53,228 bases of DNA from Raillietiella orientalis (taxonomy: Eukaryota), in the NCBI GenBank assembly GCA_036172245.1, contig JAYWIR010000028.1, positions 2,914,001 to 2,967,228 of the forward strand, in the 5' to 3' direction. Both the position numbers and the translations under genes were made by a program. Under the pieces are notes generated by a model. The model made no database searches. It saw only the letters and a list, made by a program, of their open reading frames with translations, and was not told the origin of the DNA. Within the stretch, counting starts at the first letter, position 1, and every line of letters begins with the position of its first letter. Below are positions 9,591 through 51,477 of the stretch, piece after piece.

Positions 9591-9819
9591 TGTCACCCGG
9601 GTGCGCCGGGGCGTTTATTATAAACTATCCGGAAACAGGGTTCCCGGACAAAGGGGAAAACAAGAGACGAAGGGGGTGGGATCCCGACACGCAGGTCGGT
9701 ATGCCGAAAGTCCGGAACGGGAGGGAAGGGACCACAAACACACTACTATATAAAAAAAAAATAAAAGAAGAATATGGAGGACAGGAGACAGGGGTCTTTG
9801 GTAGGTCCGTTCCTTATTT

Positions 9820-12800
9820 TCAAAACCGGCGATGGATGCCGGCGATCTCTCTCCTTACGCCCTGTGGCAGATATGCCCACTGGGCAGCCGACGACATGTT
9901 TGCGCTGGCTAATCCGGTGGGCTGACGAAGGATGGCTAGCTTCTCCAACTCTCGGTGGGCCTTGTCGATGGCGCGGGTGCAACACACGGTTGCAACGACA
10001 GCACCCAATGACAGGCCGCCTGGCGTGAAGAAGCAGCGCATCAAGTACTTTGCGGTGTCCCCCTGGTGCCGGAGAGCTGAGGACAGCCTCCGACAGAGTC
10101 CTAGAAGGGCACCGCAGTCCAGGAGCAGGTGCGGGACCGTTTTTACTTCCCCGCACCGCTTACAGTTTGGGGAGACAACTCCCCCGGAAACAAGGTTCGT
10201 GCGCTGGTTGGAGTGAAAACCCCGATGCACCAGCATAATCACGTCCTGCTTCCACGAAAAAGGGAACACAGAAGTGTTCAAACACGAGGAAGGAACCACA
10301 AGTTCTTCAAGGGGCACACTCAAGTGTTCGCTCCACCGAAGGAGTCCCTTCGGAACGTGGCGAGGTGTGGCGGCGTCCGCCAGCTCGCAAGTCTTCCAGC
10401 CGCCAATAGGTCGCGTTGTTCCTGCGATGGTGCAGGCGACCTCCCATCTCGCCGGCTCGCAACTGTCATCTCTTGCCCTGAAGGCTGACAGTGCGTCGGC
10501 GAGGGGGGTGACGGCCACGCAAGTCAACTTCTCCTGGCTGTTGCACACCTCATCCACCGTGCAGTACGGGGAGAGGTGAGCGCAACGGAGTTCCAGGAGG
10601 GAAACGTCCTGGTGCTTTGCCCAGCCATGCAACGGTTCCTTCCGCCAAACTTCAAAGTTCGTTGGGCGGCAGGAGATCCATTCCTGGGCTTTCAGGAGCC
10701 GGTACAGCGGTTTCAAGGGGAAACCGAAGCTTCTCGTAACGCGCTCCGTGTGCGGCCGTAGCGACAGAAGTCCATCGCTGCCTGTGCAGCGCCGCAGAAG
10801 CAGGCGCGCGGGAACGCACCACGGAGTGGACCAAAGGTTGGCGCACAGGGCCAACATCCGAAGCTGCACCTGCAGCTCGATTCTCTCCAGCGTCAGGATG
10901 CCTAAGCCAAAATCCCGACGCGGAGCCGCCAGGTCTTTGAGGCGGATCCTGGACCTCGCAGGACCCCACAGAGCGTTCCTCAACAGGCTGTGCGCCTGGA
11001 GCTTATCCGAGTAGGAAGGCGGGCAAACAAAAAGCAGGAGGCGCAAGAGGGGGGCAACGAAAGTGTTCCATATCGTGGCCCGCTCCGGCAGGACGAACCT
11101 GCCATGGTGGAACGGGCTCAGGGCATTCGAAGCCTTCCGAAGGCAGTCCGACCACACTTCCACTGGGCTGATGTTCCCCAGCGGAACGCCCAGATATTGC
11201 ATGGAGGAAGCGGTCGGGATCCCCAGGCGGATCCAGTCGGACTGCTCCTCCCATGCCGCACCAATAGGTACGACCACGCTCTTGCTCCGGTTTACGCCCA
11301 TGCCCGCTCCCCGGCGAATCAGCTCGAGGAAATCCTCGAGACTGGACGCCGGGGTGGTCATGGGTAAGAGGAGAAGCAGGTCGTCAGCATAGGCCGCCAC
11401 GGACGGCGTTCCTGGACAAGAGCTCGGCAGGTTGGCCAGCGTCAGCCTGTACGCCCTCAGCACCAACTCAAAGAAGATGCTGAAGAGCAACGGGCTTAAG
11501 ATGCCGCCCTGCCTGATGCCCCGACGCATCGGCACGCCGTACACGTGGCAGCCGCTAAAAGAGATGGAAATGAGCGCGTGGCGCAAGCAAGCGCGCAAAT
11601 ACGCCACGAGGTGCACCGGGACACCAAGGCGTTACAGGAGCTCCAGCAGGAGATCCTGATTTACGGAATCGAACGCCTTGCGGAGATCGACCGCGACCGC
11701 CAAGGCACCCGGCGCTTCCCCAGGCCGAATGCAGCGACGCCTAGCCTCGGCAGCCGCAGATGCGGTTGCCTGGCTGTCGTGCGCCACGCAGCGTTGCAGC
11801 TCGAGCCACGTGCGCGCAAAGAACAGGTTCGCCTCCATGGACCGCCCGGGAACAGCGTAAGACTGCTCCGGACTTACCACGGATCCAGCGATCCTGCCCA
11901 GGCGCGCGACCCACAGCCTGGAGAACAACTTGACGTCCGCATTCACCAAGGTGATGGGACGCCAGTTGCTTAAATGGCGCATGTCTCCGCCTTTCGGCAA
12001 CAGACGCACCCTTGCTGAGCGAAACGAGGCCGGGACATTGCCTGTCTCTCGCATCAGCGCAGAAAGCCTCAGCACCAGGGGGATTAGTTCCGGCGCGAAG
12101 CACTGGAAGAACTTCGCAGGCAGACCATCCTCACCTGGCGCCTTGCGCTTCTTGAGGCCCGCTATGGCGGAAGACACTTCTTCCGCCGTGAACGGCAAGT
12201 CAAGAGTGGCGCGTTCCTCCTCGTCGACCGCCGGGAAATCCGCCGGCAGAAGCAGCTCCGAGAGACTGCGTTCCGTCGGCTCCCGAGCGTACAACGAGAA
12301 GTAATAGCGCTTTAGGAGGCGGCGAACTTCTGCCGCGCCTGAGCACTCCAGGCCCTGGTCGTCGAGCAGACAAGCTGCTCCTGACTGTCAGACCTGGCGC
12401 TCGGCCTTGGCCTTGTACTCCGCAAGGTACCGGACGTCCGGGCATCGGAAGAATTGGCGGGCCTGCAGAAACTCTCTGCAGTTAACCACGCCTTCCCCGA
12501 AGCCACGGGGAAGCAGGCGCAAGGGGAACCGGCTGCAGAACTCGCGGACCGATCTTTTCAGATCATTCCAGTCCACGAGCTCTCGAGCGGCAAAGGTCCG
12601 GAGATGCTAGCGGAGGTGCTCCGCAGCCACCGGATTTCTCAACCAGTCGGCCGGCAACCTCCAGACGTGCGTCGGAGGGCCCTTGCCAGGCGGGAGTAGC
12701 TCAAACTCCAACCTGTAGTGGTCGGAAAGCTCGGACGGCACAGGACCTCTTCGACCCACCCGACAATGCAGGTGATCGTCCAGGAACACATGGTCCGGCA

Positions 12801-13383
12801 AAGCACGCATCCCGGGATCGTCGGCCAGCAAATTCGAGGCGTGCACCGACGCGCACACCTCGTTCACCAGCCGTTTCTCCCGCCGACGGTGAGACTCCTC
12901 GGATAGCGCGTGGACGTTGAAGTCCCCGGCTACGAGGTGAGCCACGTGGGGGCCGGAGTTGCTGAGCCAGCGGTCGCGCAGTCTCTCGAAAAACTCCAGT
13001 TTCTCGGTGTGACGCGCGGAGCCGCTCGGCGCGTACACGTTCGTGACGACAAGGTTGATCGATTCGGACCACTTGAGAACAAGTTGGCCCACACGACCTT
13101 CCTCGTCGAAACAAACGCTCCGCACCGCTCCCGCCACCCTGCCCCGGACAAGGAATGCGACTCAGCAGGTATTCTGGGAGCCTGACCTCCAATGGAGAGT
13201 CCCGCCTGCGCGAACTTGCAGATCGGCCGCTTGCTGCTCGGAGAGTGAGTGAATCTCCTGCAGCAGGGCCAGATCGAAGTCGCGCAAGACGTTGGCAACC
13301 AATTGCCTCTTCTCGTTGTCCTACAGCCCGTTGACGTTCCAACAGGCCACTCGGACGCGACGGGAAGAAGCGAGACCGCGCAT
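9820..13383 (-). pseudogene. ORF2 of E6: APE endonuclease, reverse transcriptase and Cys domain, broken by stops and frameshifts
   Basis: NVYAP, GDFN, SDH (ORF 12607-13137); KAPGEDG, WRPITL, DLRKAFDSV (ORF 11632-12294); GIRQG, YADD, YLGV, CKRC...H...C (ORF 9820-11616). Confidence 0.92.
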
Positions 13384-13388
13384 TGCTG

Positions 13389-14748: not shown

Positions 14749-16603
14749 TTCACACCCGGATGTTTCGGGGCATTTATTTCTTTGAAATAAAAATACATGA
14801 AATGTCGCGTGGCGAACTCGGAGGTTCACCACTGCAAAACAGCTTGCTGGTTACCGGCTCCATGCCGGAGAGGTCCTTCCGATGCGCGGGGATGGGAAAT
14901 AAAGAAAAACAAAAAGAAACAAAAAGCTCAAATGTGGGGGAGAACAAATGTTGTAGGGGTGGGAGGGCGGGAAAGGGATCACGGTGCGCGTGGAAAGGTC
15001 CTCTAGATCCTAATCAGGATCCGCACAAGCTGAGTCCTTTCAGCACCCAAGTGGCGCCACTTGCAGACACTGCGCGCGTAAAGGCGAGTCGAGTGTAAGG
15101 CGTTGCCGGTTGGCTGACGCCTTCTTCTGGTGGCGTTCCAAGCCGCCACTATTCCTCTGATGCAGCAGAGAACTGCTACACTAGCGGGCGGGGACAAGGC
15201 GTCACTACAGAAGAGGCGCCTGAAAACGTCCTTTGGGCAGCATCCGCGCAAGTGCAGGATCCCCGCGAGACGATCCCACAAAAAGCGGAGGGCGCTACAC
15301 TCAAGGAGAAGGTAAGGGAATGTTTCTTTTTCCCCACACCGGTCACAATTGGGATCCACAGCCCCCCGGGTTGTGTGGTGCAGGCGTGCTTTGAATAATA
15401 ATCCCCAGAGTACCACAAGCAACGCTACATTCCGCCATTTCAATGGGAGAGAGGCACTGTTCCAGGACGCTAGTGGACACTTGATCTCCTCCGGAGATAG
15501 TCCGAGTAGCTCGCCCCAGCGTCGAATTCCGTTTGGCGGGACACTCGGCGTCGCAGCGTCAGCTAGCTGCCGAGATGTCCACGCCTTTATCGATTGTGTC
15601 CTGCCGCCTATAGTGCAGGACACGGTCCATTTCCCCTGCTCGCTACTGTCGCTGGCATTCACAAGGAAGGGCAGCACTGGGGCGAGGGGGGTTATCAAGG
15701 CCCACAGAAGCTTGTCGTGGGACTGCACGATCTTCTGCAGCGTCCAGCGGGCGTGCCTTTTCATACAAGTGTTCCTTGTGCCCGCCGGAACGTGGATCTT
15801 TTCCCAGGTGGAGACTGATTCGTGCAACCAAGCGGAGTAGTTTCCTAGGAGGCAGGAGATCCAGGCGTTCTCCCGGACCGCAACAAAGATGCGTCGCAGC
15901 ATAGAACCACAGTATGCTCTTCTGCAGACGCGCGCAGACAGAAACGACAAAAGTCCGCCGATTCCACAGGCTCGTTGGGCCAGGAGGCGTGCTGGAACGC
16001 ACCAAGGCGTGTCCCACAATTCGGCCGCGAGGGCGAGAGTCCTGCATCTAAGTGGCAGTTCCATGCGCTCCAGCGTAAGTACGCCAAGTCCACCGTCCTT
16101 ACGTGGAGCGCACAAGTCTTTGAGCCTCACACGGGACCTCCCTTTGCCCCAAAAAACTGTCCTCAGGAGGCCCGCTGCTCGTTTCCGAATAAAATAAGGG
16201 GCGGGGCAAACAAAAAGTAGGGGGAGAAGCAGGGGAGCCGCAAACGCGTTCCACATCGCGGCCCGTTCCTGCAAGAAGAACTTGCCTTCTTGGAACGGAC
16301 CGATCGCCAACGCTGCCTTTTGGAGACGGTCGGACCAGGCATCTGCTGCGCAGAAGTCCCCCAACGGAGTGCCAAGGTACTTGATGCATCTGCCCGTGGG
16401 GATCCCCAAGCGGATCTAGTCCGACCGTCCAGCCCACGCCGAACCGACAAAGACCATCGACGACTTCGCCCTGTTCACCTACAGGCCCGTCCCGCGGCGC
16501 AGCAACTCGAAGAATTCCTCGAGCGCACACGCCGGGGTGGAACCGGGAAGCAGCAGCAGAAGATCGTCTGCATAGGCCGACCCGAAAGGCGTGCCGGCGA
16601 GTC
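14749..16603 (-). mobile_element. E7: subfamily D LINE 3' fragment (RT from YADD to the end, plus 3'UTR)
   Basis: SAYADD at ~16565-16580. ORF 15003-16409 has KYLGTPLG and CDRCGEKETFPYLLLEC. The element ends AATAAATGCCCCGAAACATCCGGGTGTG. Confidence 0.9.
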
Positions 16604-17638
16604 CTTCCCCACAAACTGGTGGTCGGCGAAGAAAGCGTCGACCTCTGGTATGTGGGGAAGCCCAAATACTGTGGCTTCTGCAACACGTCGGGACACCTCA
16701 AAAGGAGGTGCCCCAACGTACAGTGCCTGGTATGCGGGACAATGGGCCACGCGAAGGAAGTGTGTCCACAATCCGCTGTGCGCGTGGTTTCCGCGAGGAA
16801 CCTAAAAAAACGCGCGCGGCTGCTACAGAAAAAACTGGCGGCGAAGGCTGCCGCTCAAGCTGTGCCACCCACTCCCGTGGTCCAGGCCTCAGCCGACACC
16901 CCGGCAACGAATGCCGAAAAGATCGAGAAAAGCGGTCAGGTGTCGGAATGGCAAGAAGTCACAGCGAAAAAGGAAAAAAAGTCGAAGAAAGAACGACGAA
17001 TTGAAAAAAAGCTCGCCTACCAAAATAAAAAACAGCAGGTTAGCGAGAATTTAAAAGAATGCAGCGTCGTCGTGGAACGCGTCCCCGCCGAACGCCGCAA
17101 GGTAGAAATCGCTGCTACCGACGAGCAACCCACTGTTGAAAATGTCAACAGCGTGGGGAGCGAACCGGCGGAAGCGTCCGTCATCGAGACCGTGATCGAT
17201 GACGCCGCCTTCGAGCGTGCGGCGGAGGAGCTGGCTGCATCGTTGCAGCCAGACCCCTCCAAGGCTGGCAAAAAGGCAGTGAGGCGTCCGGCCTCCACCG
17301 AGGAGTCGGTAACTTCCGACCCCGAAGCGCAGGCCGGAAACCAAGTTTCCATCTCCGCGGCACCCCGCCGGAAGGCTGGAAGGAAGTCCAGCAAACCCCG
17401 GAAAGCCCCTCTCCAGGCCGAAGGCGTGGAGATGACTTCCGACTGCGAGGGTGCCATGAGCGTGGGAGAATCCCGGGAATCGTCACCCGAGAGACCACCA
17501 CGCACAGACACGGAGGAGATGGAGGGGGTTGAAGCCGGAAAGGTACCCAAGGTGCCTGAGGAGGCTGAAACCCTAATGGTCATCTCACCCGCCTCGGAAG
17601 AGGCGGGTTCCCCCACACCGTCATCTTCCCGGCAGTAA
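16604..17638 (+). pseudogene. ORF1 of E8 (5'-truncated nucleic-acid-binding protein with two CCHC knuckles)
   Basis: CGFCNTSGHLKRRC and CLVCGTMGHAKEVC; stop codon TAA at 17636-17638. Confidence 0.88.
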
Positions 17639-21221: not shown

Positions 21222-21306
21222 TCCCTTCTTGTTCCCTCCCACCCTTTGTTTCTTTTTGTTTAGTTTTTTTGTTTTTCCCCTTTCCCCTGCTGCCTTCGTG
21301 GACCGT

Positions 21307-21438
21307 ACCGGTCTAGAAACCGGTGAATTGGCAGGCTCCGTGGTTCTTAGCTTCTGGCTGGAGCATTGCCACAGCCATTAATACTTACTTTATAAAGTTT
21401 ATTTTTTAATAAACGACCCGGAGAAATCCGGGTGAAAA
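21307..21438 (+). other. Representative LINE 3'-terminal module: upstream hairpin, AATAAA, terminal hairpin, four A
   Basis: ACCGGT-CTAGAA-ACCGGT (21307-21324), AATAAA (21408-21413), ACCCGGA-GAAA-TCCGGGT. Homologous terminal modules occur at twelve other element ends. Confidence 0.75.
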
Positions 21439-22850
21439 TCGACCGCCTTGTCCGCTCTAGGGCGGACGTGTTTGATCGGTGCTCCTCGTGCCAAGAAGTC
21501 TCCCCCAGTGTAAGCGTTGTGTGGTTCGGTGGTCGATCAGACAGCGATGCCTGACGCGACCACCAGGGATGGCCAGGGGGCAGCGGAAACGCCGCCCCCG
21601 GAGGCGATGGAGAGCCATGAAGCGGCGGCAAGGTCGCCCTAGAGGCAATGGAGGTGAAGGCATCCGCTCTTACAGAATCGGTCCCCGCTGCAAAGCGGGC
21701 GTGGAGCGCCGTTGTGTCGGCGCCATCGCCTGCAGCCGCGGCGGAATTGTCGGCCTATGTAGAGAAGGGGTACAACCCCTCATTGTTCTACAAGGGAGGC
21801 AACCTTTATTCTTTAGAGAGCGCGCGCGCCTTTTCGAAGGGCATGCGCGCTCTCGATGTAAAAGAGGATCTCAGCGCTATGACCATCCGCAGCGGGGGTC
21901 AGTACGTTGAGGTCATCTGCAAACATGCAGAGCTGGCACAACGACTGCTTCAAGCCATCTTTGTGATATGGACGCGTAGGCTCCTCCAGTCTACGGCCGA
22001 CCGCAGCATGGTGGTCCACCTGTTAAGCGTAACCGCGCGAATGCGCAAAGTACAGGTTCGCGCCGCTCTGGAACAGTTCGGAACGGTCCACGCGCAGTGG
22101 ACGAAAGTTAGTCCTTTCCAGAACCACAAGGGACTGCAACACGGCCTCACGAATGCGCGCGTGACCGTTCGGGAGGCCTGCGCTCTTCCCCACAAACTGG
22201 TGGTCAAAGGCGAAACCGTCGAACTCTGATATGTAAAAAAGCCGAAATACTGTGGCTTCTGCAATACGTCGGGCCACCTCAAAAAAAGGTGTCCCAACGT
22301 GCAGTGACAAGAATGCGGCACAATGGGGCACAGGAGGGAGGTGTGCCCAAAAGCAGCAGTGCAGGTGGTTTCCAAGAGAAACCTTAAAAAACGCGCCCGG
22401 CTTCTGCAAAAAAGGCTGGCGGCGAAAGCTTCCGCGAAGGCTGTGCCACCCGCGCCCAAGACCCAGGCCGCACCCGAGACTTCGGCGACCAACGCCGAAA
22501 GAGTTGAGGTAGCCGGCCAGGAGACTGGGTGGCAATTGGCAACGACCATAAAATCAAAGAAGGAGAGGAGATTAGAGAAAAAGCTCGCGTACCGCCAGAA
22601 AAAACAGCAGGCATTTGAGCAGATAAAAGAATGCAGCGTTGTCGTTTATTACCCGGTTGCGCCGGGACGTTTATTATAACATCAACTGGGAACTGTGTTC
22701 CCAGGCAAGGGGAACAGAAAATGGGGAGTAGATTTCCTGGAACGCAGTCCGGGCACACTGAGAGTTCGGAACGGGATGGGGTGGGACAATAAATAAATAA
22801 ACTGGGTGGGGAGGCGAGGACAGGGGTATACCGTCTAACCGTTCCTATTC

Positions 22851-25800: not shown

Positions 25801-26414
25801 AGGTGTTCATCGAGGAACGCATGGTCCGGCGATCTCTCCATCCCGGGCTCACCAGCAAGCAAGTTTTGCACGCGCACGGACGCGCATACCTCGCTCACCA
25901 GTTGCTTCTCCCTCAAGCGGCATCTCTCCTCTGTTAGCAGGTGGACGTTGAAGTCTCCTGCAAGGAGGTGCGCCACGTTAGGGCCGGAGTCAGCGAGCCA
26001 GCGGCTGCGCAGGCCACCCAGGAATGCAAGTCGCTGGGCGTAATGCCGGCCGCCGCTCGGCGCGTAGATGTTCGTAACGACCAGGTCGATCGATTCGGAC
26101 CACTTGAGGACAAGTTGGCCCACACGACCTTCCTCGTCGAAACAAACGTTCCGCACCGCCTCCGCCACGCTGCCTCGGACGAGGAACGCGACTCCGCACG
26201 TGTGCGCGGAGCCTTGCCGCCAGTGTAGCGTCCCGCCCGCGCGCTCTTCCAGATCCGATGCCTGCCGTACGGAGATGCTATGTATCTCCTGCAGCAGCAC
26301 CAGATCGAACGCGCGCAAAGCGTTGGCTACCGTCCGCCTTTTGTCAGCATCACGTAGCCCGTTGACATTCCAACAGGCCACGCTGACGCGACGAGCGGAC
26401 GCGAGTCCACGCAT
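22851..26414 (-). pseudogene. ORF2 of E10 (1188 codons including the stop; endonuclease, RT, Cys domain), one frame with internal stops
   Basis: ORFs 25419-26429, 24993-25325 and 22851-24980 share a frame. The stops at 25419 and 24993 replace Trp codons. All motifs are present. Confidence 0.93.
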
Positions 26415-32853: not shown

Positions 32854-35840
32854 TTGCCACCCGGTGACGCCAGGGCGTTTATTACAAATTTTCTATGATT
32901 CCTGGTACGAGGCCCTACTACGGCCAACTTAGCTGGACCTGTCGGGTCGCCGGTACGGAGACCGGCGCGACTCTCCTCAGCAGCGGAAAGGGATGGGAGA
33001 AAAAACAAAAAAAATAAAACATAAAGAAAAAAAAGATTTGGCAGGGTTGGGGAGGGATCACTGACCACTGGGAGGAGGGTCCATCCTTTGCAGGATGCCC
33101 TCGAGGTCCGTCCGTATGGTTCCCAGGTGAGGCCATCTGGTCGCAATCCGCAGGTAGCGGACTGCAAGTACGACGGCATCCCAGTCGTGGCTCGGTCTTC
33201 TGACGTCGCTCCAGCACGTCACAATCCTGCGTACGCAGCAAAGTGCAGCCAGGGCAGCGGCTGGACGCAGGGCATCCTGCACGAACACAAGGCGAAAAAC
33301 GTCTCTGTGCTGGCTGCTCTCTTGGATCCGTAGGGAGGCAGGAAGACGTTCCCACAGGGTTCGGAGGGCAGCACAATCAACAAGGAGGTGGGGGAGGGTT
33401 TCCTGTTCCCTACATATGATGCAGGTAGGATCTACTTGACCCCTGGTCCAGTGGTGGCGGCGTGCGTTGCAGGGTAGACCCCAATGCAACAACAGAAGCG
33501 CCGACTCCTGCCACTTCAGGGGGAGGATCCTAGAGCCAATTAATACTGGGGCCACTTCATATCATCCGGCTGGACGCCAAGGAGCTCGCCCCATCTCTGA
33601 AGTCTTCTCGGCTGGACACTAGCGGTAGTGGCGTTTGCCAGTTCTTCCGTGGACCAGCCGCTTATCAACTTCTCCTTGCCTGCGATGTGGCAGGAGACTT
33701 GCCACCTAGGCTTGCGGCTGCTGGAGAGCGCCCTACTCAGGAAAAGCATCGCCGTGGCTTGAGGGGTTGTCTCTGCCCACGTGCTTCTCGCGGGACACTG
33801 GAGTATCTTCCGCAGAGTGCAGCGGGAATAGGCGCCGTGTCGTAGGCAGTTCCACATCTCTCCGTTCTTCTGGTTTATCTTCACCCACGTGCCAGCTGTC
33901 TCCTCCAGCCATGCGGAGGAGTTGGGAGGGTTGCATACCATCCAGCCGTTTTCCTTAGCCAGAGTTGCCATGCGTCCTAGGAGAAGTCCGCATCTCTTAA
34001 TCTTCCTGCCACGGCACAGAAGTCAAGACGCGAGACCCTCCGTCCCGGATACACGGCTGGAAAGAAGTCGGGCCGGAACGCATCAAGGGGTGTTTCATAA
34101 CTTCGCTGCGATGGCGAGAGTTCGCCACCACAGCTGAATCTCTGGTCGCTCCATCGTCAAGAGGCCGAAACCGCCATCCCGACGTGGAGCACACATGTCC
34201 TTCAACGGGAATCGGGGCCTCCCTCTTTCCCTAACGGCAATTCTCAGGAGTTCCTTCGTCTGTATCTTCAACTCTCTGGATACGGAACAAACAAAAAGCA
34301 GGGGGCGGAGGATAGGAGTTGCGAACGCGTTCCACACCGCGGCCCGTTCCGGAAGGAGAAAGTTGTCTTGAAGGAACGGGCCGATCGGCGTTTTCACTTT
34401 TTGGAGGCAGCCGGACCACGCTTCCGTAGGGGAGTAGTCGCCCAACGGCACACCAAGGTACTTCAAGCACCTCGCCGTGGGGATCCCCAAGCGGACCCAG
34501 TCCTGCTGCCCAGCCCACGCCGCACCGACTGCAACCAACGTCGACTCCGCCCTGTTCACCGTAAGTCCGGTCCCGCGGCTAAGCAGATCGAAGAAATCCC
34601 CGACCGTTTTCGCCGGGGTGGACATCGGCAACAGAAGCAAAAGATCGTCGGCGTACGCTGCTACGGCGGGCGTGCCGGGGCACGAGCTCGGCAAGGGGGC
34701 CAAAGTCACCCTGTACGCTCTCATCACCAACTCAAAGTAGGTGCTGAAGTGCAGGGGACTGAGGCTGTCGCCCTGCCGTATGCCCCGCCGTACCGGCACG
34801 CCTTACGCCAGTTGACCTCTGAAAGAGATATTGATCAGCGCGCTGCGCCAGCAGGAGCGCAGTTAGCTCAGTAAGGAGGGAGGAAAGCCCATGCGTCCCA
34901 GGAGCTCAAGCAGGAGAACCTGTTTAACGCAGTCAAACGCTTTATGCAGATCGACTGCGATCGCTAGGGCTCTCTTCCCCCCCTGGGAGTCCTGTCCCTG
35001 CTTTGCTAACGCCCCCAAAGCGGGGCTGCCATTCGCTCCGTCTTTCATTTCTTGACTACACTGCACATGAAACCATGTGCTCGCGAAGAAGAGGTTGGCC
35101 TCCATACTTTGCCCGGGAACAGCGTAAGTCTGCTCCGGGCTAATTATGGAATTGGCCACCTGCCCCAGACGCGAAGCTCACAGTCCGGCGATCAGCTGGG
35201 CGTCCGTATTCACAATTGTGATCGGACGCCAGTTGTTGAGTTTCGTGAGTTCTCCTCCTTTCGGAAGGAGCCTCAATCTGGCTGACCGAAACGAGGCGGG
35301 TACATCGCCTTCATCTCGGATCGGCCTTGTCAATTCAAGCACCAAAGGTGCCAACTCTGCCGCGAAGCATTGAAAAAACTCCGCGGGCAGGCCGTCGTTC
35401 CCTAGTGCTTTCCGCCTCTTGAGCCTTTTGATACCGACGAGAATTTCGCCGGTGGTAAAAGGCTCGTCGAGGCTTTCCTTCTCCTTCTCCCCTATTGCCG
35501 GTGCACCGTCCGCAAGCAAGCGCCGAGAGGCATCTTGGTCCGGGAGCGCCCTGGCGTGAAGGGAGGAATAATAACGCCACACGAGATGCCGTATTTTAGC
35601 CGGAACCGAGTGCTCTCAGCTCTGGTCGTCCAGCAAGCTGGCCGACCCGGATTGCCAGCCTTGACGTTCGGCCCCGGCTCGGTACTCTGCCAGGCGACGG
35701 ACATTGGGAGGGGGGGTCCTCGCGTAACGACGGGCATACAAGTACGCTCGTTCTTTAAGGATCCCCTCTTCAAATCCCCGGGGCATGAGGTGCAAGGGGA
35801 ACTCCTCGCAAAACTCGCTGACGGAGGCCTTAAAAAGGTA
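32854..35840 (-). mobile_element. E12: subfamily C LINE 3' part (linker, RT, Cys domain, 3'UTR)
   Basis: ORFs 35178-35582, 34863-35159, 34095-34799 (YADD) and 33058-33555. The element ends AATAAACGCCCTGGCGTCACCGGGTGGCAA. Confidence 0.9.
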
Positions 35841-37744: not shown

Positions 37745-40530
37745 TTCTCATCCGGTCACGCCGGGGCGTTTATTCCATATAACATAACCAAAAAAAGCAA
37801 TTATACAAAATAAACCAGTTGGGAACCAAACTCTCAACCGACGACTGAACAAGAATGAAGAGAATATTGCTGGCACACAAGCCAGAGTAACAGTTTTGTA
37901 AACGGTGTGAGGGGGCGGGGAACACAAAGAAACCAAAATAAAATAAAAACAATGAATAAGGAGGACGGGATAAGGGTCTTTGGGATCGCTCTGGAAGACA
38001 CGGGGATAAAAGCATGGCCACCGGAAATTTTACCGAGCGAACGGGGAAGGGGTATGGGTAAGCGAGAGGTCGCAGGGGTCACCGGATTACACCGTTCTCA
38101 AAGATGTGTAAACCGGCAATGTATGCCGGTGATGTCCTCATTCACCTTGTCACGAAGATGAGACCACCTTGAAGCCTTCTCCATGAATTTAGCTGCAAGT
38201 AGGTGAGCCTCCCTTCGCTGCGCTGAAAACTCCAGAGCGTAGCGGACCTTCACGATGGCGCGAACGAAACACATGGTTGCGACAATCGCGCCAACCGAAA
38301 GTCCATTTCTGCTGAAGCAGCGATGCAGCACATGAATGGCAGTGCCTTTTTTTGGCATGATGGCCGAAGTGAGCCTTGGCCACAGTTCCCGGAGGTCACC
38401 GCAGTCCAGCAAAAGGCGCGGAAAAGGCTCGATCTCTGCCCACCTTAAACATTTTGGCAAAGCAGCTCCCCCGGAAACGACGCTTCGCTGCCTATTTCAG
38501 TGTAATGCGCAATGTAAAAAGAGCAGCACATCTTGTTTCCACTTAAGAGGGAACACGGAGCTGTCCAAACAAACGGGGGGAAACACTATCTCTTTGGGGG
38601 GCACACTTAATTTTTCGCTCCACTGAAGCAGTCTCTTCGCCCGAATCCGAGGTGTGGCGGCTTGCACCAGCTCCTTTGTCGTCCAGCTGCCGAGGAGCTT
38701 ACTGACTCCCGCGATTTTGCAGGAGAACTCCCATTCCGCCGGTAGGCAACCGTCGTTGCTTGCCGTGAGGGCAGACAGCGCTGCGGCGAGTGGTGTGGCG
38801 GCCAGACGATCTGACAACTTCCTGTCCTGCATGACTTCGTCCATTTGATGACTGAGGAGATGTCGCAGGCGTCGAAGATCTTCCGGGCGCGTTCCTTCGG
38901 AAGCTGCCCACGATGAAAAAGATTCCTGCCGCCATGCATTAATGTTCATGGGGCGGCAGCAGATCCAGCTTTGAGCTTCCAGCAGTAAGGACAGCTGCCT
39001 CAGCGGGAAGCCAAACCCTATTCTCGTGTGCCGAAAGTGGGGTAGCAACGAAAGCAGTGACTCGCTTCCCGTGCAGCGCCTCAGTAGAAGGCGTGCGGGT
39101 GAGCACCACGGCGTACACCACAGCTTGGCACAGAGCCGCAGCATGCGAAACTGCACCTGCAGTTCGATGCTGTTTAAGTCGAGGATGCCCAAGCCTGCAT
39201 CCTGACGCGGCGCCACCAAGTCTTTAAGTCTAACACGGGATCTTGCAGCGCCCCACAACGCTTTGCGTAGAAGGCGCTGCGCCCAGACTTTGACTTCCTG
39301 GGGGGGTGGACAAACAAAAAACAGGGGGCGGAGGAGGGGGGCAACGAAGGTGTTCCAGATGCAGGCCCGTACCGGGAAGACAAACTCGCCTCCTGAAAAC
39401 GGGCCAAGTGCACGCTCTGCCTTCCGAAGGCAGTCCGACCACGCTTCTGAGATGCAGAAGTCGCTCAACGGCACGCCAAGGTACCTGAGGTACCTGCCCG
39501 TGGGGATTCCCAGGTCGATCCAGTCGGACTGTCCCTCCCACGTCGCACCCACCGGAACAACCATACACTTACTCCTGTTAACGCTCACGCCCGCACCGCG
39601 ACGAACCAACTCAGAGAAGTCTTCGTGCGATGTCGCCGGGGTGAACATGGGCAACAGGAGAAGCAGGTCGTCGGCATAGGCTGCCACGGCCGGCGTACCT
39701 GGAAAGGAGCTCGGAAGGTTGGCTATCGTCAGCCTGTAAGCCTCCAGCACCAATTCAAAATAGATGCTGAAGAGCAGCGGGCTTAAGATATCGCCCTGCC
39801 TAATTCCTCGCCTAACCGGCACGCCGTACACGCGACAGCCACTGAAAACAATGGTTGTAATCGCGTGGCGAAAGCCGTAGCGCAAGTACGCCAACAGGGA
39901 TGCCGGAAGACCCAGACGTTCCAAAGTCTCAAGAAGAAGCTTTTGGTTCACGCAATCGAAAGCTCTGTGCAAATAGTCTGCTGCCGCCAAGGCTCCCGGT
40001 GTCTCCCTTTGCGTCCCGCGCCTCCGTCGGTGAGAGATCAAGGGCGTGCTACCGCACGACGATCCACCGCCACACGATGCTGCAATTGCAGCCATGTGCA
40101 TAGGAACAAGAGATTCGTGTCCATGGACCGCCCAGGAACAGCGTACGTCTGCTCCGGACTTACCAAGGATTCCGCGATCCTAGCTATCCGCGCCGCCCGA
40201 AGTTTCGAGAACAACTTGACGTGCGAATTCACTAATGTGATCGGACGCCAGTTGTTCAGTTGGCACAAATCTTCACCTTTCGGCAGTAGAAGCACCTTCG
40301 CTGAGCGAAACGAGGCGGGGACATCACCCGAGTCTCGCATCAGCGACGAGTGTAGGAGCACCAGGGGGATGAGCTCCGCCGCAAAACACTGGAAGAATTC
40401 CGCTGGGAGTCCATCTTCGCCTGGCGCTTTTCGTCTCTTGAGCCCCGAGATGGCCGAGGAAATATCCCCAGCCGTGACGGGCTCATCAAGACGCGCGCGT
40501 TCCTCCTCGTCTACAACAGGTGCATCAATC
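37745..40530 (-). mobile_element. E14: B-like LINE 3' part (RT, Cys domain, 3'UTR)
   Basis: KAPGEDG and WRPITL (ORF 40038-40613), YADD (ORF 38497-40101). The element ends AATAAACGCCCCGGCGTGACCGGATGAGAA. Confidence 0.9.
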
Positions 40531-40533
40531 GCA

Positions 40534-41283: not shown

Positions 41284-43385
41284 TTTCCAGCCGGGTACGC
41301 TCTGAGCGTTTATTGAAAAAACACAACAATAACGTAATACTAGGCCCCACTAACGGCCACACAACACCAGACCTGCCGGGGCGCCGGGACGCAGCCCGGC
41401 GTGACGTTCCTCGGCTGTGGAGAGGGATAGGGATCAAAACAAAAAGAAAAATAAAGATAAGGAAGACAAAAAAAGAGTTTGGAGGAAGAGGAAGGGATCA
41501 CAATGCACTGGGAGGAGGGCCCATCCTTCGCAGGATGCCCTCCAGGTCCGTCTTCGTGCTTCCCAGATGGGGCCATCTCGCAGCTCTCCGCATGAAGCAG
41601 ACCGCATACGGGATGACGTCCCTCGCGTTGGCATCTACTTCTGCGTGGTGAATGTCGCTCCAGGCCGCCCCGATACCCTGGATGCAGCAGAGGGCTGCGA
41701 GGGCTGCGGCTGGCTGCAGGTCGTACCGCACGAAAAGGGGCCGAAGAACGTCTCTGGGCGCGCTGCCCATTGGGAGCCCGAGGGTCGTCCCGAACCGTTC
41801 TCACAGGGTTCGCAGGGCAGCACAGTCAACAAGTAGGTGGGGGAGCGATTCCCGCTCCCCACACCTGGCACACTTAGGCCTTACACTTCCCCGCGTCCAG
41901 TGGAAGTGGCGCGCGTTGCAGGGTAGACCCCAGTGCAACAGCAGAAGCGCCGACTCTTGAGACTTCAGGGGGAGAAGCCTGGATCCGATTAATATTAAAG
42001 GCGACTACTGGTCATCCGTCAGGATACCGAGCAGCTCGCCCCATCGACGAAGTCCACGAGGGAGGGCACTCGGGGTTGTAACATCTGCCAGTTCTCCCAT
42101 GGTCCAACCGCTCATCTTCTTTTCCTTGCCTGCGATTCGGCAGGAGACTTGCCACTTTGGCTTGCGGCCGCTGCTTAAAGCCCTGCGTAGGAAGAACAGG
42201 GTCGAAGCTAGAGGGGTAGTCTCCGCCCACGTTCTCCTGGCGTGACACTCCAGAGTAGTCCGCAGTGTGCAGCAGGCGTTGGGGACGAATCGCATTTGGT
42301 TCCATTCCGGGGAAGTCTGGAGGTTCAGCTTGGCCCACGTCGCAACTGATTCCTCCAGCCAGGCGAAAAAGTTGGCGGGGCTGCATAGCGTCCAGCCGTT
42401 GTCTTTCACCAGGGCTTCCATGCGCCCAAGTAGAAGGCCGCATCTTCTGACCTTCCTGCCAGTGCACAGAAGGTACGACGGGAGTCCTTGCATCCTGGAC
42501 ACACAGCTGGCGAGGATTCGGTCCAGAACGCACCAAGATGTGCACCATGACTTTGCTGCGATGGCGAGGGTGTGCCATCGCAGCTGTATGTGCAGGCGCT
42601 TTAGCGTCAGGAGGCAGAGACCGCCGTCCCGACGAGGAGCGCATAAGTCATCTAGAGGCACACGTGGCCTCCCTCTGCCCCAGAAGGCGATGCGGAGTAG
42701 GTCCTTTGTCCTCTTTATAATGTCACGGGGGACATGACAAATTAAAAGCAGGGGGCAAAGGATGGAAGCCGTGAACGCGTTCCACACCGCGGTCCCTTCC
42801 GGCAGAAGGTACTTGCCTTCCAGGAACGGGCCGATTGCCAACTCTACCTTCTGGAGACGACCTGAACAGGCTGCTGCGAGGCAGAAGTCCCCCAACGGGA
42901 TACCCAAGTACTTCAGGTAACTGGCCGCGGGGATCCCCAAGCGGATCCAGTCAGGCCGTTCGACCCACGTCGCACCCACCGGTACGACCGACGACTTCGC
43001 CTTGTTTACCCGAAGTACAGACCCACGACTTAGCAGGTCGAAGAAATCCTCGACTGCGGCTGCCGGGGCTGACAAGGGCAACATGAGCAGAAGGTCGTCG
43101 GCGTATGCTGCTACAGCGGGCGTGCCGGAGCACGAGCTGGGCTGGGCAGCCAAAGTCACCCTGTACGCTCTCAGCACCAACTCAAAGTAGGTGCTAAAGA
43201 GCAGGGGACGAAGGCTATCGCCCTGCCGTATGCACCTCGGCACCAGCACGCCGTACACCTGTTGCTAGATGAACTGATTTCAACGATGAGGTTGCGGCAG
43301 CAGCACCGCAGGAAGGAGAGAAGAAAGGGTGCGAAGCCCATGCGACCCAGGGGCTCCAAAAGAAGCTCCTGGTCAACGCAGTCGA
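41284..43385 (-). mobile_element. E16: subfamily C LINE 3' part
   Basis: DCVDQELL, IRQGDSL and YADD (ORF 42005-43258). The element ends AATAAACGCTCAGAGCGTACCCGGCTGGAAA. Confidence 0.9.
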
Positions 43386-43413
43386 CCGCCTTCTGCGCTC
43401 TAAGGCGGACGTG
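43379..43413 (+). promoter_or_regulatory. Putative internal Pol II core promoter of E17 (Inr-like CAGT and DPE-like GGACGTG)
   Basis: The A of CAGT is at 43380 and GGACGTG starts at 43407 (+28). The motif recurs at the 5' ends of E9 (21464), E10 (28436, minus), E21 (48103) and E13 (GGATGTG, 35869). Confidence 0.6.
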
Positions 43414-44516: not shown

Positions 44517-44519
44517 TAT

Positions 44520-45010: not shown

Positions 45011-45019
45011 TGTGTTAGC

Positions 45020-45736: not shown

Positions 45737-48100
45737 TTGCCACCCGGGTACGCCCGGGGCGTTTATTTATAAAAACTCTACAATTGCGGTACCAGGCCCC
45801 GCTCACGGCCTTATGCACGGGACCTACCGGGACGCCGGGACGCAGCCCGGCGTGGCACTCCCCGGCAGCGAAAGGGGATGGGGAAAAACAAAAATAAAAA
45901 CAAAAAAGCAAACAAACAAGTGAGGTTGGGGGGCAGGGAAGGGATCACTGTTCGCTGAGAGGAGGGCCCATCCGTTGAAGGAAGCCCTCGAGGTCCATCC
46001 GTAGATTCCCCAGTTGGGGCCATCCAGCAGCTCTCCGCAAGAAGCGTTGGGCATATGGGATGACATCCCTCGCGTGTTGACCCACTCCTTCCTTGTTGGT
46101 GTCGCTCCATGCCGCCACGATGCCTCGGACGCAGCACAAGGCTGCAAGGGCTGCGGCTGGCTGCAGGGCGTCCTTCACGAAGAGGGGCCGAAGAACGTCT
46201 CTAGGGGAACTGCCCGTTGGGAGACCGAGGATCGTCCCAAACCGTTCCCAAAGGGGACGAAGGGCAGCACAGTCCACAATAAGGTAAGAGAGCGATTCCC
46301 GCTCTCCGCACCTGACACACGCAGGATCCACAACTCCTCATGTCCAGTGAGAGCGGCGTGCGTTGCAGGGTAAACCCCAATGCAACAACAGCAACGCCGA
46401 CTCTTTCCACTTAAGGGGCAGGATCCTGGATTCCTGAAGAAGCGGGGGCCACTTCAGCACATCCATAGGGATGGCCAGCAGCTCGCCCCATCTTCTTAGT
46501 CCTCGCGGCTGGACGCTCGGTGTCGTGGCGTCGGCCAGTTCTCCTGTTGTCCAGCCGCTGATCAACTTCTCGCGTCCCTCGATGCAGCAGGAGACTTGCC
46601 ACCTTGGCGTACGGCTGCTGCGAAGTGCCCTCTTCAGGAAGGGCAGCGCCGTAGCTAGGCAGGTCGTCTCTGCCCACGTGCATCTTGCTGGACTCTCCAG
46701 GAGATTCCGCAGCGTGCAGCGGGCGTAGGGGCTGCATCGGAGACGATTCCACGTTTCGTGGCTCCTCTGGTTAACCGCTGCCCACGTTCCAATATTCTCC
46801 TCCAGCCAGGCGGGGGAGTTGGCGGGGCAGCAAACCATCCAGCTGTTCTCCTTGGCCAATGTTGCCATGCGCCCGAGCAGTAGGCCGCATCTTCGCATCT
46901 TCCGGCCACGGCTCAGAAGAAAAGACGCGAGTCCATCGCACCGGGACACACGGCTGGCCAGGAGGCGGGCCGGAGTGCACCAAGGGGTGCTCCACATCTT
47001 CGCTGCGATGGCGAGGGTTCGCCACCGCAGCTGCTTCTCCACGCGCTCCAGCGTCAGGAGGCCAAGACCGCCGTCCCGACGCGGAGCGCACAAGTCCTTC
47101 AGAGGGACTCGGGGCCTCCCCTTGCCCCAAAGGGCGATACGGAGGAGGTCCTTTGTCCTCTTCTTCGATTCCACGGTGGGGGGGCAAACAAAAAGCAAGG
47201 GGCGGAGGATGGGGGCCGCGAAGGCGTTCCAAACCGCGGCCCGTTCCGGCAAGTGAAACTTGCCTTCCAGGAACGGGCCGATCGCCGTCTCGACTTTTTG
47301 GAGGCAGCTGGACCACGCTTCCGCAGGGGAGTAGTCCCCCAACGGCACACCAAGGTACTTGAAGCACCTCGCCGTGGGGATCCCCAGACGGACCCAGTCC
47401 TGCTGCAATGCCCACGCCGCACCTATTGGCACAACCGACGACTTCGCCCTGTTAACCTGCAGTCCGGTCCCGCGGCTGAGCTGATCGAAGAAGTCTCCGA
47501 CCGCCTTTGCCGGGGTGGACATTGGTAACAAGAGCAGAAGATCGTCGGCGTACGCTGCTACGGCGGGCGTGCCGGGGCACGAGCTCGGCAACGGGGCCAG
47601 AGTCACCCTGTACGATCTCAGCACAAACTCAAAGTAGGTGCTGAAGTGCAGAAAGCTGAGACTATCTTCCTGCCTTATGTCCCGCCGCAACTGCACGCAA
47701 TGCACCTTGTGACCGCTGAAAGAGACGGTATTTATTGCATTCCGCAAGCAAGAGCACAGGTAGGAAATCAGGGAGGGTGGGAAGCCCATGCGACTTAGGA
47801 GCTCCAAGAGGAGGTCCTGGTCTACATATTCGAACGCCTTGTGGAGGTCGACTGCCAGCGCTAGGGCCCCCTTTCTTGCCCGTGGTTTCCTTGCTAGCCC
47901 GGCTGGCGGCCCCAATGTGGGGTTGCCGACTTTCCCTATCCCTTTCTTCTCTCTTCTCTGCAGGTGCACCCATGTGCTTGCGAAGAAGAGGTTGGCATCC
48001 ATACTTCGACCGGGAACAGCATAAGTCTGCTCCTGGCTAATTACGGATTCTGCCACCTGCCTTAGACGCGAAGCCCATAGCCCTGCTATTAACTTGGCGT
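45737..48100 (-). mobile_element. E20: subfamily C LINE 3' part (RT from AKLI onward, Cys domain, 3'UTR)
   Basis: DLHKAFE, YADD, KYLGVPLG, CVRCGERES. The element ends AATAAACGCCCCGGGCGTACCCGGGTGGCAA. Confidence 0.92.
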
Positions 48101-48302
48101 GCGGACGTGTTTTTGTAGCGCTCCTCCGTGCCTGGTGTAAAGCGGTTGATTTCGATTGTGTTTGTGTGTGAAGCATCTGCGGTGTCCAATGGCAGAAATG
48201 CCTGAGGACACCGCGACTGATATAGGAGGGGGAGAGGCTTGCTCCTCTCCCCAACCCACAAAGGTGGGGGCAACTGCCCCCACGGAGGCGACGGCAGCCG
48301 CA

Positions 48303-48470
48303 CCCCTGGAAAAGGGGGCAACCGCCGCCTCGGAAGTGAGGGCAAAGGCACCCTTGAAAAAGGGAACAAAAGCCCCGCTGGAACAGGGTGCAACCGCCTT
48401 CTTGAAAAAGGGGACAACCGCAACCCTGCAAAAGGGCGCAACCGCCTCCTTGAAAAAGGGGGCACCTGCA
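48303..48470 (+). repeat. Seven degenerate 24-bp tandem units in ORF1 of E21
   Basis: PLEKGATA, ASEVRAKA, PLKKGTKA, PLEQGATA, FLKKGTTA, TLQKGATA, SLKKGAPA. Confidence 0.85.
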
Positions 48471-49898
48471 CCCTCGAAAGCGTCTTCGGCATCGCCGAAG
48501 ACCTGGAGTTCACTGGCTGCAGCCCCATCTCCTGCAGCCCTCTCCGAGCAGAAAGCCTACCTGGAACAGGGATGCAAGCCGTCCTTGATATACAAGGTAG
48601 GCAATCTGTTTATCGGGAATACCGCTTGCAACTTCGAAAGGGAGTTGCAGCGGTTGAATGTAAAAGAGGAAGTCCAGGAAGGTCTTTCCGTGTTGAGTGG
48701 TGGTCAACGGGTGGAGGTGACTTGCAGAAATGCAAGCCTTGCTAGACACCTCCTAAATACGCCAATCACACTAGAAGGACGAAAGGTTTTCCCATTAACG
48801 GAGGATCGCTCCGTGGTGACGCACCTCACGGGAGTCACCCTCCGCATGTCAAAAGCCGACGTGCAAAGGGAACTCGGAAAATATGGAACGGTTCACGCGC
48901 TATGGAAAAAGCCCAACGTCTTCCAGAGTTACGGAAGGCTGTTTAGTGGCATGGCTGTTGCGCGTGTAACCGTCCACGAAAACGGTGGGCTACCCCACAA
49001 ACTAGACGTCGGCAACAAGACAGTCGACGTCTGGTACGTGGGCAAGCCCAAGTACTGTGGACACTGTGATGCCACAGGGCATCTGAAAAAGCGGTGCCCC
49101 CACATCCAGTGTTTCCACTGTGGAGAGAAGGGCCACCTCCGCAAAGTGTGCCCGAAACGCGAACCCCCGGCTCCCGCTGCCTTGAAAAAGGCCAAAGGGA
49201 AACGCGCGGGGGCTACGGAAAAGTTTGCGAAGGCACCCGCGAGACAGAACCCACAGCCGGAGCCCGAGCCCGTGCAGCAAACGTTGGTCGTGGAATCTAC
49301 CAACGACGCTGAAAAGAGCGAAGGCTGGCAGAAGGCGAAGCAGAAAGCGAAGAAAACAAAGAAAACCGAAGGGTCGACAGCGGAACCCGCGACGTCTCCT
49401 TTAAATAGGAGACAACGCCGCGCGTACATCCGCGAATGTTCGGTCGCTTTGGAGCGTGTGGGGGTACCCGGAACCGCCACCGGGAGAGATATCCCCCGCG
49501 TAGACGCCGACGATAACGCGATCACGGAAGGCGAACCCTCTGTGCAAACAGAGGTTGAACCGCGCGACGCGCTCGCCTCGATCGACGAGGCCGCCTTCCA
49601 GCAGGCGGCGGAAGAGCTCGCGGCCGAACTCGCCGACCGTGCGAACGGCGCGCAAAAGAGCTTGCGAAGGCCGGCCGCGACCAGGGCACCTCCGACAGGT
49701 GACCACGACCCGGATGCCGGAAGTGCGTCCTCCTCCACGGAGGCGCCTCCGAAGAAGACTGGACGGGAGTCCAAGAATTCCAAGAGGCGCATCCTGACGA
49801 GGAGCGAGGCGGACGCACCGGCAGCCGAGGGGGAAGCCGGCAGCGTGGGAACGGAGGGAGGAATTTTCCCACCCTCCGCCACCGAGCAGCCGACCACC

Positions 49899-50135
49899 CC
49901 ATGGAGGAGGGGGAGCAGGTAGGGCATTGCCTCCACCTTCCACCGGTGGAGCCTGCAGAAAAGATGGTCATGGAAGAGGGGGAGAAGACAGCTGAGAACC
50001 GCTCCCCTCTGCCGTCCAACGCAGCCGAGGAATCGGCCCCCATGGAAGAGGGGAAGCAGGTGCGTGAAGCATGCTCCCTTCAACCGTTGCGGTCCGCCGA
50101 GGAATCGCCCCCCATGGAGGTGGGAGAACCGCTGG
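49899..50135 (+). repeat. About four degenerate ~70-bp units (MEEGE...) at the ORF1 C-terminus of E21
   Basis: CATGGARG recurs at ~49900, 49969, 50041 and 50114. E5 has only two units (~9235 and ~9303). Confidence 0.7.
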
Positions 50136-50399
50136 GCGGTGCCCCCATGCCTCCATCCGTCCCACCCGACCAGGTGGCGGGAGCCCAATTGCCACTTTCC
50201 TGAAAATAACACCTGGGCTCGCCTGTCGCCGTCGATTACGCGTGGCCTGCTGGAACGTGAACGGGCTGCGCGACGACGGCAACAGACGGGAAACGGCCGC
50301 CACCCTGCGTGACTTCGACCTGGCACTCCTGCAGGAGATCCACGTGATCACCGCGGAGAACGCCCAGGAGATCGAAAGGATCGCAGGGGGACGGTTGAT

Positions 50400-51477
50400 T
50401 GTCACCCGGGTGCGCCGGGGCGTTTATTATAAACTATCCGGGAACAGGGTTCCCGGACAAAGGGGAAAACAAGAGACCAAAGGGGTGGGATCCCCGACAC
50501 GCAGGTCGGCATGCCGAAAGTCCGGAACGGGAGGGAAGGGACCACAAACACACTACTATATAAAAAAATAAAAGAAAAATGTGGAGGGCAGGGGACAGGG
50601 GTCTTTGGTAAATCCGTTCCTTCCTTTTAAAACCGGCGATGGATGCCGGCGATCTCTCTCCTTACGCCCTGCGGCAGATGGGCCCATTGGGCAGCCGACG
50701 ACATGTTTGCGCTGGCTAATCCGGTGGGCTGACGAAGGATGGCCAGCTTCTCCAACTCTCGGTGGGCCTTGTCGATGGCGCGGGTGCAACACACGGTTGC
50801 AACGACAGCACCCAATGACAGGCCGCCTGGCGTGAAGAAGCGGCGCATCAACTCCCTCGCGGTGTCCCCCTGGTGCAGGAGAGCTGAGGCCAGCCTCCGC
50901 CAGAGTCCTAGAAGGGCACTGCAGTCCAGGAGCAGGTGCGGGAGCGTTTCCACTTCCCCGCACCGCTTACAGTTTGGGGAGACGACTCCCCCGGAAACAA
51001 GGTTCGTGCGCTGGTTGGAGTGAAAACCCCAATGCACCAGCATAATCACATCCTGCTTCCACGGAAGGGGGAACACAGAAGTGTTCAGACACGAGGGAGG
51101 AACCACAAGTTCTTCAAGGGGCACACTCAAGTGTTCGCTCCACCGAAGGAGTCCCTTCGGAACGTGGCGGGGCGTGGCGGCGTCCGCCAGCTCGCAAGTC
51201 TTCCAGCCGCCAATAGGTCGCGTTGTTCCTGCGATGGTGCAGGCGACCTCCCATCTCGCCGGTTCGCAACTGTCATCTCTTGCCCTGAGGGCTGACAGCG
51301 CGTCTTCGAGGGGGATGACGGGCAGGCGGGTCCACTTCTCCTGGCTGTTGCACACCTCATCCACCGTGCAGTACGGGGAGAGGTGAGCGCAACGGAGTTC
51401 CAGGAGGGAAACATCCTGGTGCTTTGCCCAGCCATGCAACGGTTCCTGCCGCCAGGCTTCAAAGTTCGTTGGGCTAC
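50400..51477 (-). mobile_element. E22: 5'-truncated (1078 bp) subfamily B LINE inserted antisense into the endonuclease of E21 with a 13-bp TSD
   Basis: GGGGACGGTTGAT occurs at 50387-50399 and 51478-51490. The sequence is closely similar to E6 9591-10666. Confidence 0.95.

Follow-up and report, generated by a model that had tools for sequence, protein, structure and literature searches.

A covarying stem-loop in the 3' untranslated regions of tail-less, self-targeting L1-like retrotransposons of Raillietiella orientalis

How a long interspersed nuclear element (LINE) chooses its template RNA is known mostly from the L2-clade fish LINEs, SART1, R2 and the poly(A)-using mammalian L1. R2 is a site-specific, tail-less LINE whose multi-hairpin 3' untranslated region (UTR) is kept in structure more than in sequence and is bound by the element's own protein, which starts target-primed reverse transcription at the exact 3' end. 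Here, we describe a short hairpin, HP-A, in the 3' UTRs of a cluster of L1-like LINEs on a 53,228-nucleotide stretch of the Raillietiella orientalis genome (contig JAYWIR010000028.1, positions 2,914,001 to 2,967,228, forward strand; "the window" below means this whole stretch). Unlike R2, which uses a restriction-like endonuclease and targets ribosomal DNA, the elements in the window carry an apurinic/apyrimidinic endonuclease (APE) and insert into sister LINEs.

The closest precedent lies within the L1 clade itself: monocot L1 LINEs of the "monocot 1a" type are described as carrying a 3'-end stem-loop with compensatory mutations and conserved loop bases, and have been read as stringent-type elements (PMC3747384, PMC3472496). 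The monocot hairpin resembles HP-A in belonging to an L1-type LINE, in its 3' UTR location, and in its compensated stem and conserved loop, but it lies within the last 45 nt, has the loop UCU and is followed by a poly(A) end (PMC3747384), whereas HP-A is internal, has the loop CUGCGU, is one of three hairpins and is followed by no A-tail. We regard it as a closer precedent than the L2-clade elements UnaL2 and ZfL2 or SART1 of the R1 clade, whose 3' stem-loops are reported to be recognized by the protein of the second open reading frame (ORF2p) and to be functional in retrotransposition assays (PMC4176376, PMC3747384). These, like HP-A, are short 3' UTR stem-loops in which the loop and flanks are believed to confer specificity, so that the reverse transcriptase (RT) picks its own RNA (PMC4176376, PMC3747384); they differ from HP-A, which is known from sequence alone, in belonging to other LINE clades and in adjoining 3' repeats or poly(A). 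In insertion behavior the cluster also resembles Zepp and ZeppL of green algae, described as L1-type LINEs that enter existing copies and build nested arrays of mostly 3' parts (PMC8226300). One of these, L1-1_CR, since renamed ZeppL-1_cRei (PMC8226300), is reported to end in poly(A) repeats, of which the window elements have none (PMC3747384).

We somewhat favor the reading in which selection maintains HP-A as a stem-loop of the sense RNA, in the 3' UTR of tail-less, self-targeting L1-like LINEs, where it would form part of a 3' module recognized by the element's ribonucleoprotein (RNP).

A hairpin shared by LINE 3' UTRs

Scanning the window for the AAUAAAYG motif of the terminal module picks out 12 LINE 3' UTRs. 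HP-A, a hairpin of 5-7 bp with the core CYGGN-loop-N'CCRG, is homologous in 11 of them, each time 105-240 nt downstream of the ORF2 stop codon on the sense strand; these 11 copies, in which the hairpin has 10 distinct sequences, all belong to a single window and a single family and are the sample for everything that follows. Sequences are given in the sense of the element.

9684-9699, minus strand: HP-A of m9823, CCGAC-CUGCGU-GUCGG
50494-50509, minus strand: HP-A of m50630, CCGAC-CUGCGU-GUCGG, in an element about 95% identical to m9823
22736-22753, minus strand: HP-A of m22854, CCCGGA-CUGCGU-UCCAGG, with one sense C.A mismatch (a U.G wobble on the other strand)
32948-32967, minus strand: HP-A of m33082, CGCCGGU-CUCCGU-ACCGGCG, whole-UTR pair probability 0.87-0.98
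41382-41401, minus strand: HP-A of m41522, CGCCGGG-CUGCGU-CCCGGCG
45833-45852, minus strand: HP-A of m45969, its 20 nt identical to those of m41522
37870-37885, minus strand: HP-A of m38110, CUGGC-UUGUGU-GCCAG, 95 nt upstream of AAUAAA
31751-31764, plus strand: HP-A of p31515, UGGC-CUGCGU-GCCA
21307-21324, plus strand: HP-A homologue of p21191, ACCGGU-CUAGAA-ACCGGU
14854-14868, minus strand: HP-A homologue of m15027, CCGGC-AUGGA-GCCGG, with a 5-nt loop
7508-7523, minus strand: HP-A homologue of the decayed m7730, CUGGC-CAGCGC-GUCGG, with two sense G.U pairs
5660-5915, minus strand: the twelfth 3' UTR, decayed and low in G+C, with the terminal module (AATAAA at 5693) and no recognizable HP-A

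An earlier note made from the letters of this DNA had listed the first eight of these hairpins, and its positions and letters are all correct; the two "related stems" it mentioned proved to be the homologues in p21191 and m15027, and the copy in m7730 is an addition to its list. Its assumption about orientation also holds, as ORF2 lies on the minus strand in 9 of the 11 carriers, making the sense loop CUGCGU. That loop is found in six of the 11 copies, on four stem variants, and nine copies are within two changes of it. Perfect stems of at least 4 bp flank five of the 43 CTGCGT sites on the two strands, against about 0.3 expected from the background (730 of 106,404 positions, or 0.69%), and no other hexaloop is as common as CTGCGT/ACGCAG among the window's hairpins of this kind; since the copies are homologous, this count reflects inheritance and not five independent events. 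A covariance model of HP-A recovers the 11 UTR copies at E <= 0.0013 and nothing else in the 53 kb, the next hit scoring 12 bits (E 0.58), and a comparison with Rfam gave no family match at gathering score.

Pairing was followed in four alignments: A1, a MAFFT alignment of whole UTRs that was not anchored on the hairpin; A2, centered on the hairpins; and A3 and A4, of the Group I and Group II copies defined below. In A1, 10 of the 11 hairpins fall in register, and HP-A comes first among 468 possible local 5-bp helices both in the fraction of cells paired (0.96) and in covariation (0.61), with the invariant terminal hairpin as runner-up. The seven-pair helix of A2 is paired in 87.0% of its 77 cells, compared with 24.7-40.8% when the 3' partner is slid, and none of 500 shuffles matches the observed pairing or covariation score. 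RNAalifold finds the 5-bp core in A2 and, separately, in A3 and A4. Tallied from the RNAalifold pair types, 53 of 55 core cells are paired and three of the five core pairs covary: the closing pair takes all four Watson-Crick types (CG in six copies, GC in two, UA in two, AU in one), pair 19-28 is GC in eight, AU in two and GU in one, and pair 17-30 is CG in seven, UA in two, UG in one and unpaired in one.

A tree built from the last 840 nt of ORF2 separates Group I, comprising m38110, p31515 and (m22854, (m9823, m50630)), from Group II, comprising m15027, p21191 and (m33082, m41522, m45969). Mapped manually on this tree, the pair types require at least five independent double changes (at least three at the closing pair, one at 19-28 and one at 17-30), and the intermediates G.U, U.G and C.A are found in single copies. 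Pair counts and consensus folding thus bear out the earlier claim that the stems change while pairing is retained, with the qualification that these stems are homologous variants of one core, CYGGN/N'CCRG, and not unrelated sequences. A stem compensated in this way, with a loop conserved across diverged lineages, usually marks a stringent-type signal.

The divergence across which the hairpin persists is considerable. Synonymous divergence (dS) in ORF2 runs from 0.69 between m41522 and m45969, whose hairpins are the same in all 20 nt, to more than 1.6 between the groups, both of which have the CUGCGU loop. As the ratio of nonsynonymous to synonymous divergence (dN/dS) is 0.22-0.33 between subfamilies, we take the subfamilies, on their coding sequences, to be separate, once-active lineages under purifying selection and not decayed duplicates. 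Between-group identity is 0.63 in HP-A, 0.72 in its loop and 0.65 in the terminal module, compared with 0.28 in the flanks, in agreement with the earlier remark that the UTRs otherwise align poorly.

These figures bear most directly on the view that HP-A has no selected function, being an inherited CCGG...CCGG palindrome in which chance, or gene conversion between copies of the cluster, produced a few changes that look compensatory. Such an origin would fit the near or complete invariance of two of the five core pairs, the unremarkable folding energies, and the small sample of neighbors from one cluster. We nevertheless consider it highly improbable, given how nearly completely the core stays paired at dS values of 0.7 to more than 1.6, the four Watson-Crick types at the closing pair, the first rank among all helices of the same sequences, and the excess of hairpin over flank identity (63% against 28%); gene conversion, moreover, would homogenize stems rather than diversify them.

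The structured 3' module and the element 3' end

All of the UTRs share one layout: the stop codon, a U-rich and then a C-rich tract (CCCAUCCC-like), HP-A, a second hairpin, AAUAAACG, a terminal hairpin HP-C (CCCGG-N5-CCGGG), a few bases, and the end of the element. From the U/C-rich tract to about 5 nt past HP-C, this makes a structured 3' module of roughly 130-170 nt, with the following parts.

9628-9648, minus strand: HP-B of m9823, a second, longer hairpin between HP-A and AAUAAA
50437-50457, 22686-22704 and 37818-37838, minus strand: HP-B homologues
31801-31819, plus strand: HP-B homologue
50400-50428, minus strand: terminal module of m50630, consisting of AAUAAACG, HP-C (CCCGG-CGCAC-CCGGG) and UGACA, ending exactly at the target-site duplication
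9619, 22675, 32883, 41314, 45767, 37774, 14778, 7408 and 5693, minus strand: first A (sense) of AAUAAA in homologous terminal modules
21408 and 31831, plus strand: first A of AAUAAA in homologous terminal modules
50400-51477, minus strand: m50630, a 5'-truncated insertion with an exact 13-bp target-site duplication, GGGGACGGTTGAT, at 50387-50399 and 51478-51490

HP-B covaries more strongly than HP-A. In the five sequences of Group I, five of its 12 predicted pairs are changed on both sides and 96.7% of cells are paired; 14 of the 60 cells are G.U in the sense strand, and two pairs are G.U in four or five of the five sequences. Because these cells become C.A in antisense, HP-B folds as sense RNA only. 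Group II has an analogous longer, imperfect hairpin directly 3' of HP-A. RNAalifold additionally pairs an upstream CCCAUCC motif with the 3'-terminal GGGUGG in Group II (A4 columns 8-13 with 165-170, e.g. 32850-33000 on the minus strand) in 86.7% of cells; this predicted pairing would close the whole module and compete with HP-C, and as it involves low-complexity sequence we do not trust it.

Strand also matters for the idea that the hairpin acts in single-stranded DNA, either first-strand cDNA or extruded genomic DNA, in second-strand priming or as an insertion landmark. Watson-Crick covariation alone is strand-blind, and in m22854 it is only the antisense strand that forms an unbroken stem, by way of a T.G wobble, as a DNA role would allow. 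We think such a role highly improbable, as the two G.U pairs of m7730 form in the sense strand only, the many sense G.U pairs of HP-B would turn into C.A mismatches in antisense, and none of the nine insertion sites that could be mapped lies at HP-A.

The hexamer preceding HP-C is AAUAAA in 11 of the 12 UTRs (e.g. 9614-9619, 22670-22675, 31831-31836) and AUUAAA, a common functional variant, in the twelfth. It stands immediately 5' of the terminal hairpin, and on its sequence looks like a poly(A) signal, though the genomic copies have no tail. The 3' end of the element is precise, 23 nt past the hexamer and 29 nt from its first A: the m50630 insertion ends in ...GGGUGACA and abuts the target-site duplication directly, with no poly(A). 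A poly(A) tail, typical of the L1 clade though not universal in it, is thus absent here, the junctions showing one to six A at most.

From the base of the hairpin on its 3' side to AAUAAA/AUUAAA, the eight copies of the earlier note measure 64, 65, 60, 64, 67, 65 and 66 nt, with 95 nt for the copy at 37870, just as that note had reported (60-67 nt in seven of eight). Over all copies the spacing is 60-67 nt in 7 of 11 and 75-99 nt in the other four, and the distance from HP-A to the element 3' end is 94 nt in m50630, where the end is mapped, and about 90-130 nt elsewhere. This geometry would suit a selected RNA structure that serves the transcript, whether as a site for a host or ORF1 protein in 3'-end formation at the AAUAAA some 65 nt downstream, or in stability, export or packaging. 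The constant spacing in most copies, the near-universal hexamer with the end 23 nt beyond it (a typical cleavage distance), and the position of HP-A away from the 3' end, where priming happens, all speak for a transcript role. Since the genomic copies lack an A-tail, polyadenylation is not reflected in them, and the spacing is lost in four copies; on balance we rate this explanation unlikely.

Insertion targets and the LINE family

The 3' flanks of 9 of the 12 elements are sister-element sequence, so that the cluster consists of nested arrays of copies within copies; m50630, for instance, is lodged in the endonuclease-coding region of a sister on the plus strand. Two sites on the antisense strand of the endonuclease-coding region have been struck repeatedly. 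Three insertions, with ends near 9590, 50400 and 37745, fall within 26 nt of one another at site 1 (reference positions ~2763, ~2763 and ~2737), and two, with ends near 41285 and 45738, fall at site 2 (both ~3463). The two sequences that m41522 and m45969 entered differ more from each other (dS 1.38) than the two inserts do (dS 0.69), from which it follows that site 2 was struck twice independently; segmental duplication of target and insert as a unit was rejected for this pair on dS and dN/dS. The copies m9823 and m50630, which differ in 5' extent, may be either segmental duplicates or separate insertions. ATC(A/G)... follows 5 of the 12 junctions, which hints at a preference in the nick site.

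Beyond about 8 kb, copies of a single LINE superfamily crowd the window, and its G+C content there is 57-64% save for one 2-kb segment (30001-32000) at 54%. By their domain set and best protein matches, the elements are L1-like LINEs: ORF2 combines an APE domain (Pfam Exo_endo_phos, E 8.9e-15), an RT domain (RVT_1, up to E 3.7e-20) and a C-terminal Cys-rich domain (zf-RVT, a weak match at E 3.4e-5, below the Pfam cut-off), as is characteristic of the L1 clade. The best outside proteins are 24-30% identical and have an L1-type domain set, one of them being named a LINE-1 ORF2; in a large collection only one protein, P0001, is close, at 60% identity over an alignment that ends before the ORF2 C-terminus and so does not reach a 3' UTR. 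A tblastn search with the longest copy finds at least 11 ORF2 3' ends, the minus strand carrying nine and the plus strand two. Upstream of the endonuclease are the following ORF1-like frames.

48150-49922, plus strand: ORF1-like frame
16385-17638, plus strand: ORF1-like frame
26414-27613, minus strand: ORF1-like frame

Of these, one frame on the plus strand encodes a CCHC zinc knuckle (Pfam E 1.4e-4), whereas Pfam gives no match to the rest. In its first 8 kb the window has a lower G+C content (42-51%) and contains LINE remnants in decay; at 3848-4636 is a plus-strand LINE C-terminus whose UTR has the CCCCATCCC motif without a terminal module.

Protein-guided scans of genome contigs and viral contigs found no outside relatives. 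When metagenomes were scanned for the pattern of the terminal module, nine loci came up; all look like chance matches, none having ORF2 homology by tblastn or a U-rich tract. From one DNA sequencing run (share 0.22), 793 contigs were placed on the window, 495 of them less than 90% alike, indicating many diverged relatives, and none of the variants listed for the same run (40 of 2,375) falls inside a hairpin.

A candidate RNP-recognition module

Because the element has a precise, tail-less 3' end at the target-site duplication, priming that depends on 3' structure is to be expected. We read HP-A as part of what the RNP recognizes because assayed stringent-type LINEs use 3' UTR stem-loops (PMC4176376, PMC3747384) and because one L1 lineage, that of the monocots, has a comparable covarying hairpin with a conserved loop (PMC3747384); protein binding and a role in retrotransposition would accordingly be roles assigned by analogy. 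In the mechanism we propose, the element RNP (the ORF2p reverse transcriptase, possibly with ORF1p) would recognize the 3' module, so that target-primed reverse transcription would begin at a defined 3' end rather than within a poly(A) tail, in the manner termed stringent-type. The single-stranded hexaloop, with its consensus CUGCGU, would make the base-specific protein contact, and the stem would serve as scaffold only. Neither the UTR nor 60 nt of flanking sequence contains a consistent complement of the loop, which leaves the loop probably accessible to a protein. Searches for a pseudoknot or kissing partner yielded only scattered 5-mers at varying positions. On visual inspection GCGU might pair with ACGC in AAUAAACGC or with CGCA in the loop of HP-C, and both pairings were rejected, as neither site shows changes that covary with the variant loops.

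Several observations weigh against this reading. One concerns position: HP-A is internal, and it is HP-C, not HP-A, that lies at or next to the 3' terminus as stringent-type stem-loops do, in a terminal module that is also more invariant. Judged by sequence, AAUAAACG with the terminal hairpin would have at least an equal claim to be where the RT primarily recognizes its RNA, and HP-A may play only an accessory part. Thermodynamics lends little help, since HP-A is no more stable than dinucleotide shuffles (36-nt fold z-scores of -2.40 to +0.78). It is the minimum-energy fold of a 36-nt window in 9 of 11 copies, but its whole-UTR pair probability is at least 0.87 in only three, 0.11-0.26 in two and at most 0.08 in six. 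Energetically preferred rivals exist in m50630 (50484-50519, minus strand), where an 11-bp shifted hairpin with the loop CGACCU has lower energy than HP-A, and in m41522 (41374-41409, minus strand), where GCCGGG pairs with a downstream CCCCGGC; these could be lineage-specific switches or mere GC-rich noise.

The comparative evidence has weak points of its own. A2 was centered manually on the hairpins, which introduces a bias that A1, A3 and A4 do not share, and two of the five core pairs vary never or hardly at all. The two longest-branch lineages carry unrelated loops, CUAGAA and AUGGA; the decayed UTR at 5660-5915 has no recognizable HP-A; the copy with the longest ORF, m22854, has its C.A mismatch in sense and a wobble on the opposite strand; and the 11 copies come from one locus and one family for which outside relatives were not found. 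Taken together, the evidence supports the structural reading well, considering how few copies there are, and the functional reading, on the strength of these sequences, is plausible and unproven. The kind of signal is already known and the example is new; it belongs to an expected kind of element and brings no new principle.

The earlier note had further suggested that a shared signal could let subfamilies mobilize one another. Such cross-mobilization would agree with the loop and terminal module that the subfamilies have in common, and is purely an inference; the covariance model and the motif scan found no short interspersed nuclear element or other non-LINE carrier of HP-A or the terminal module in the 53-kb window. 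A bolder proposal, which we hold only tentatively and with considerable doubt, is that HP-A, HP-B and HP-C form an R2-like 3' RNA module in an APE-bearing, L1-type LINE that has abandoned poly(A) priming and is aimed at the endonuclease DNA of its sisters, with the CUGCGU contact shared across subfamilies at no more than about 54% ORF2 identity. If that were true, the RNPs of one subfamily could mobilize the RNAs of another, along with any non-autonomous carrier of the module.

Finally, what is distinctive for an L1-type LINE is the combination of a precise tail-less end, a three-hairpin module, clear covariation across saturated synonymous divergence, and repeated use of the same sites in sister copies. 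More unusual than the hairpin is the behavior of these tail-less L1-type LINEs, which strike set sites in one another. A hairpin of 16-20 nt with a 6-nt loop nonetheless offers a compact, mutable target with which to ask whether stringent recognition is ancestral in the L1 clade, and the system could reveal how LINEs that build clusters couple the choice of a template to the choice of a target.

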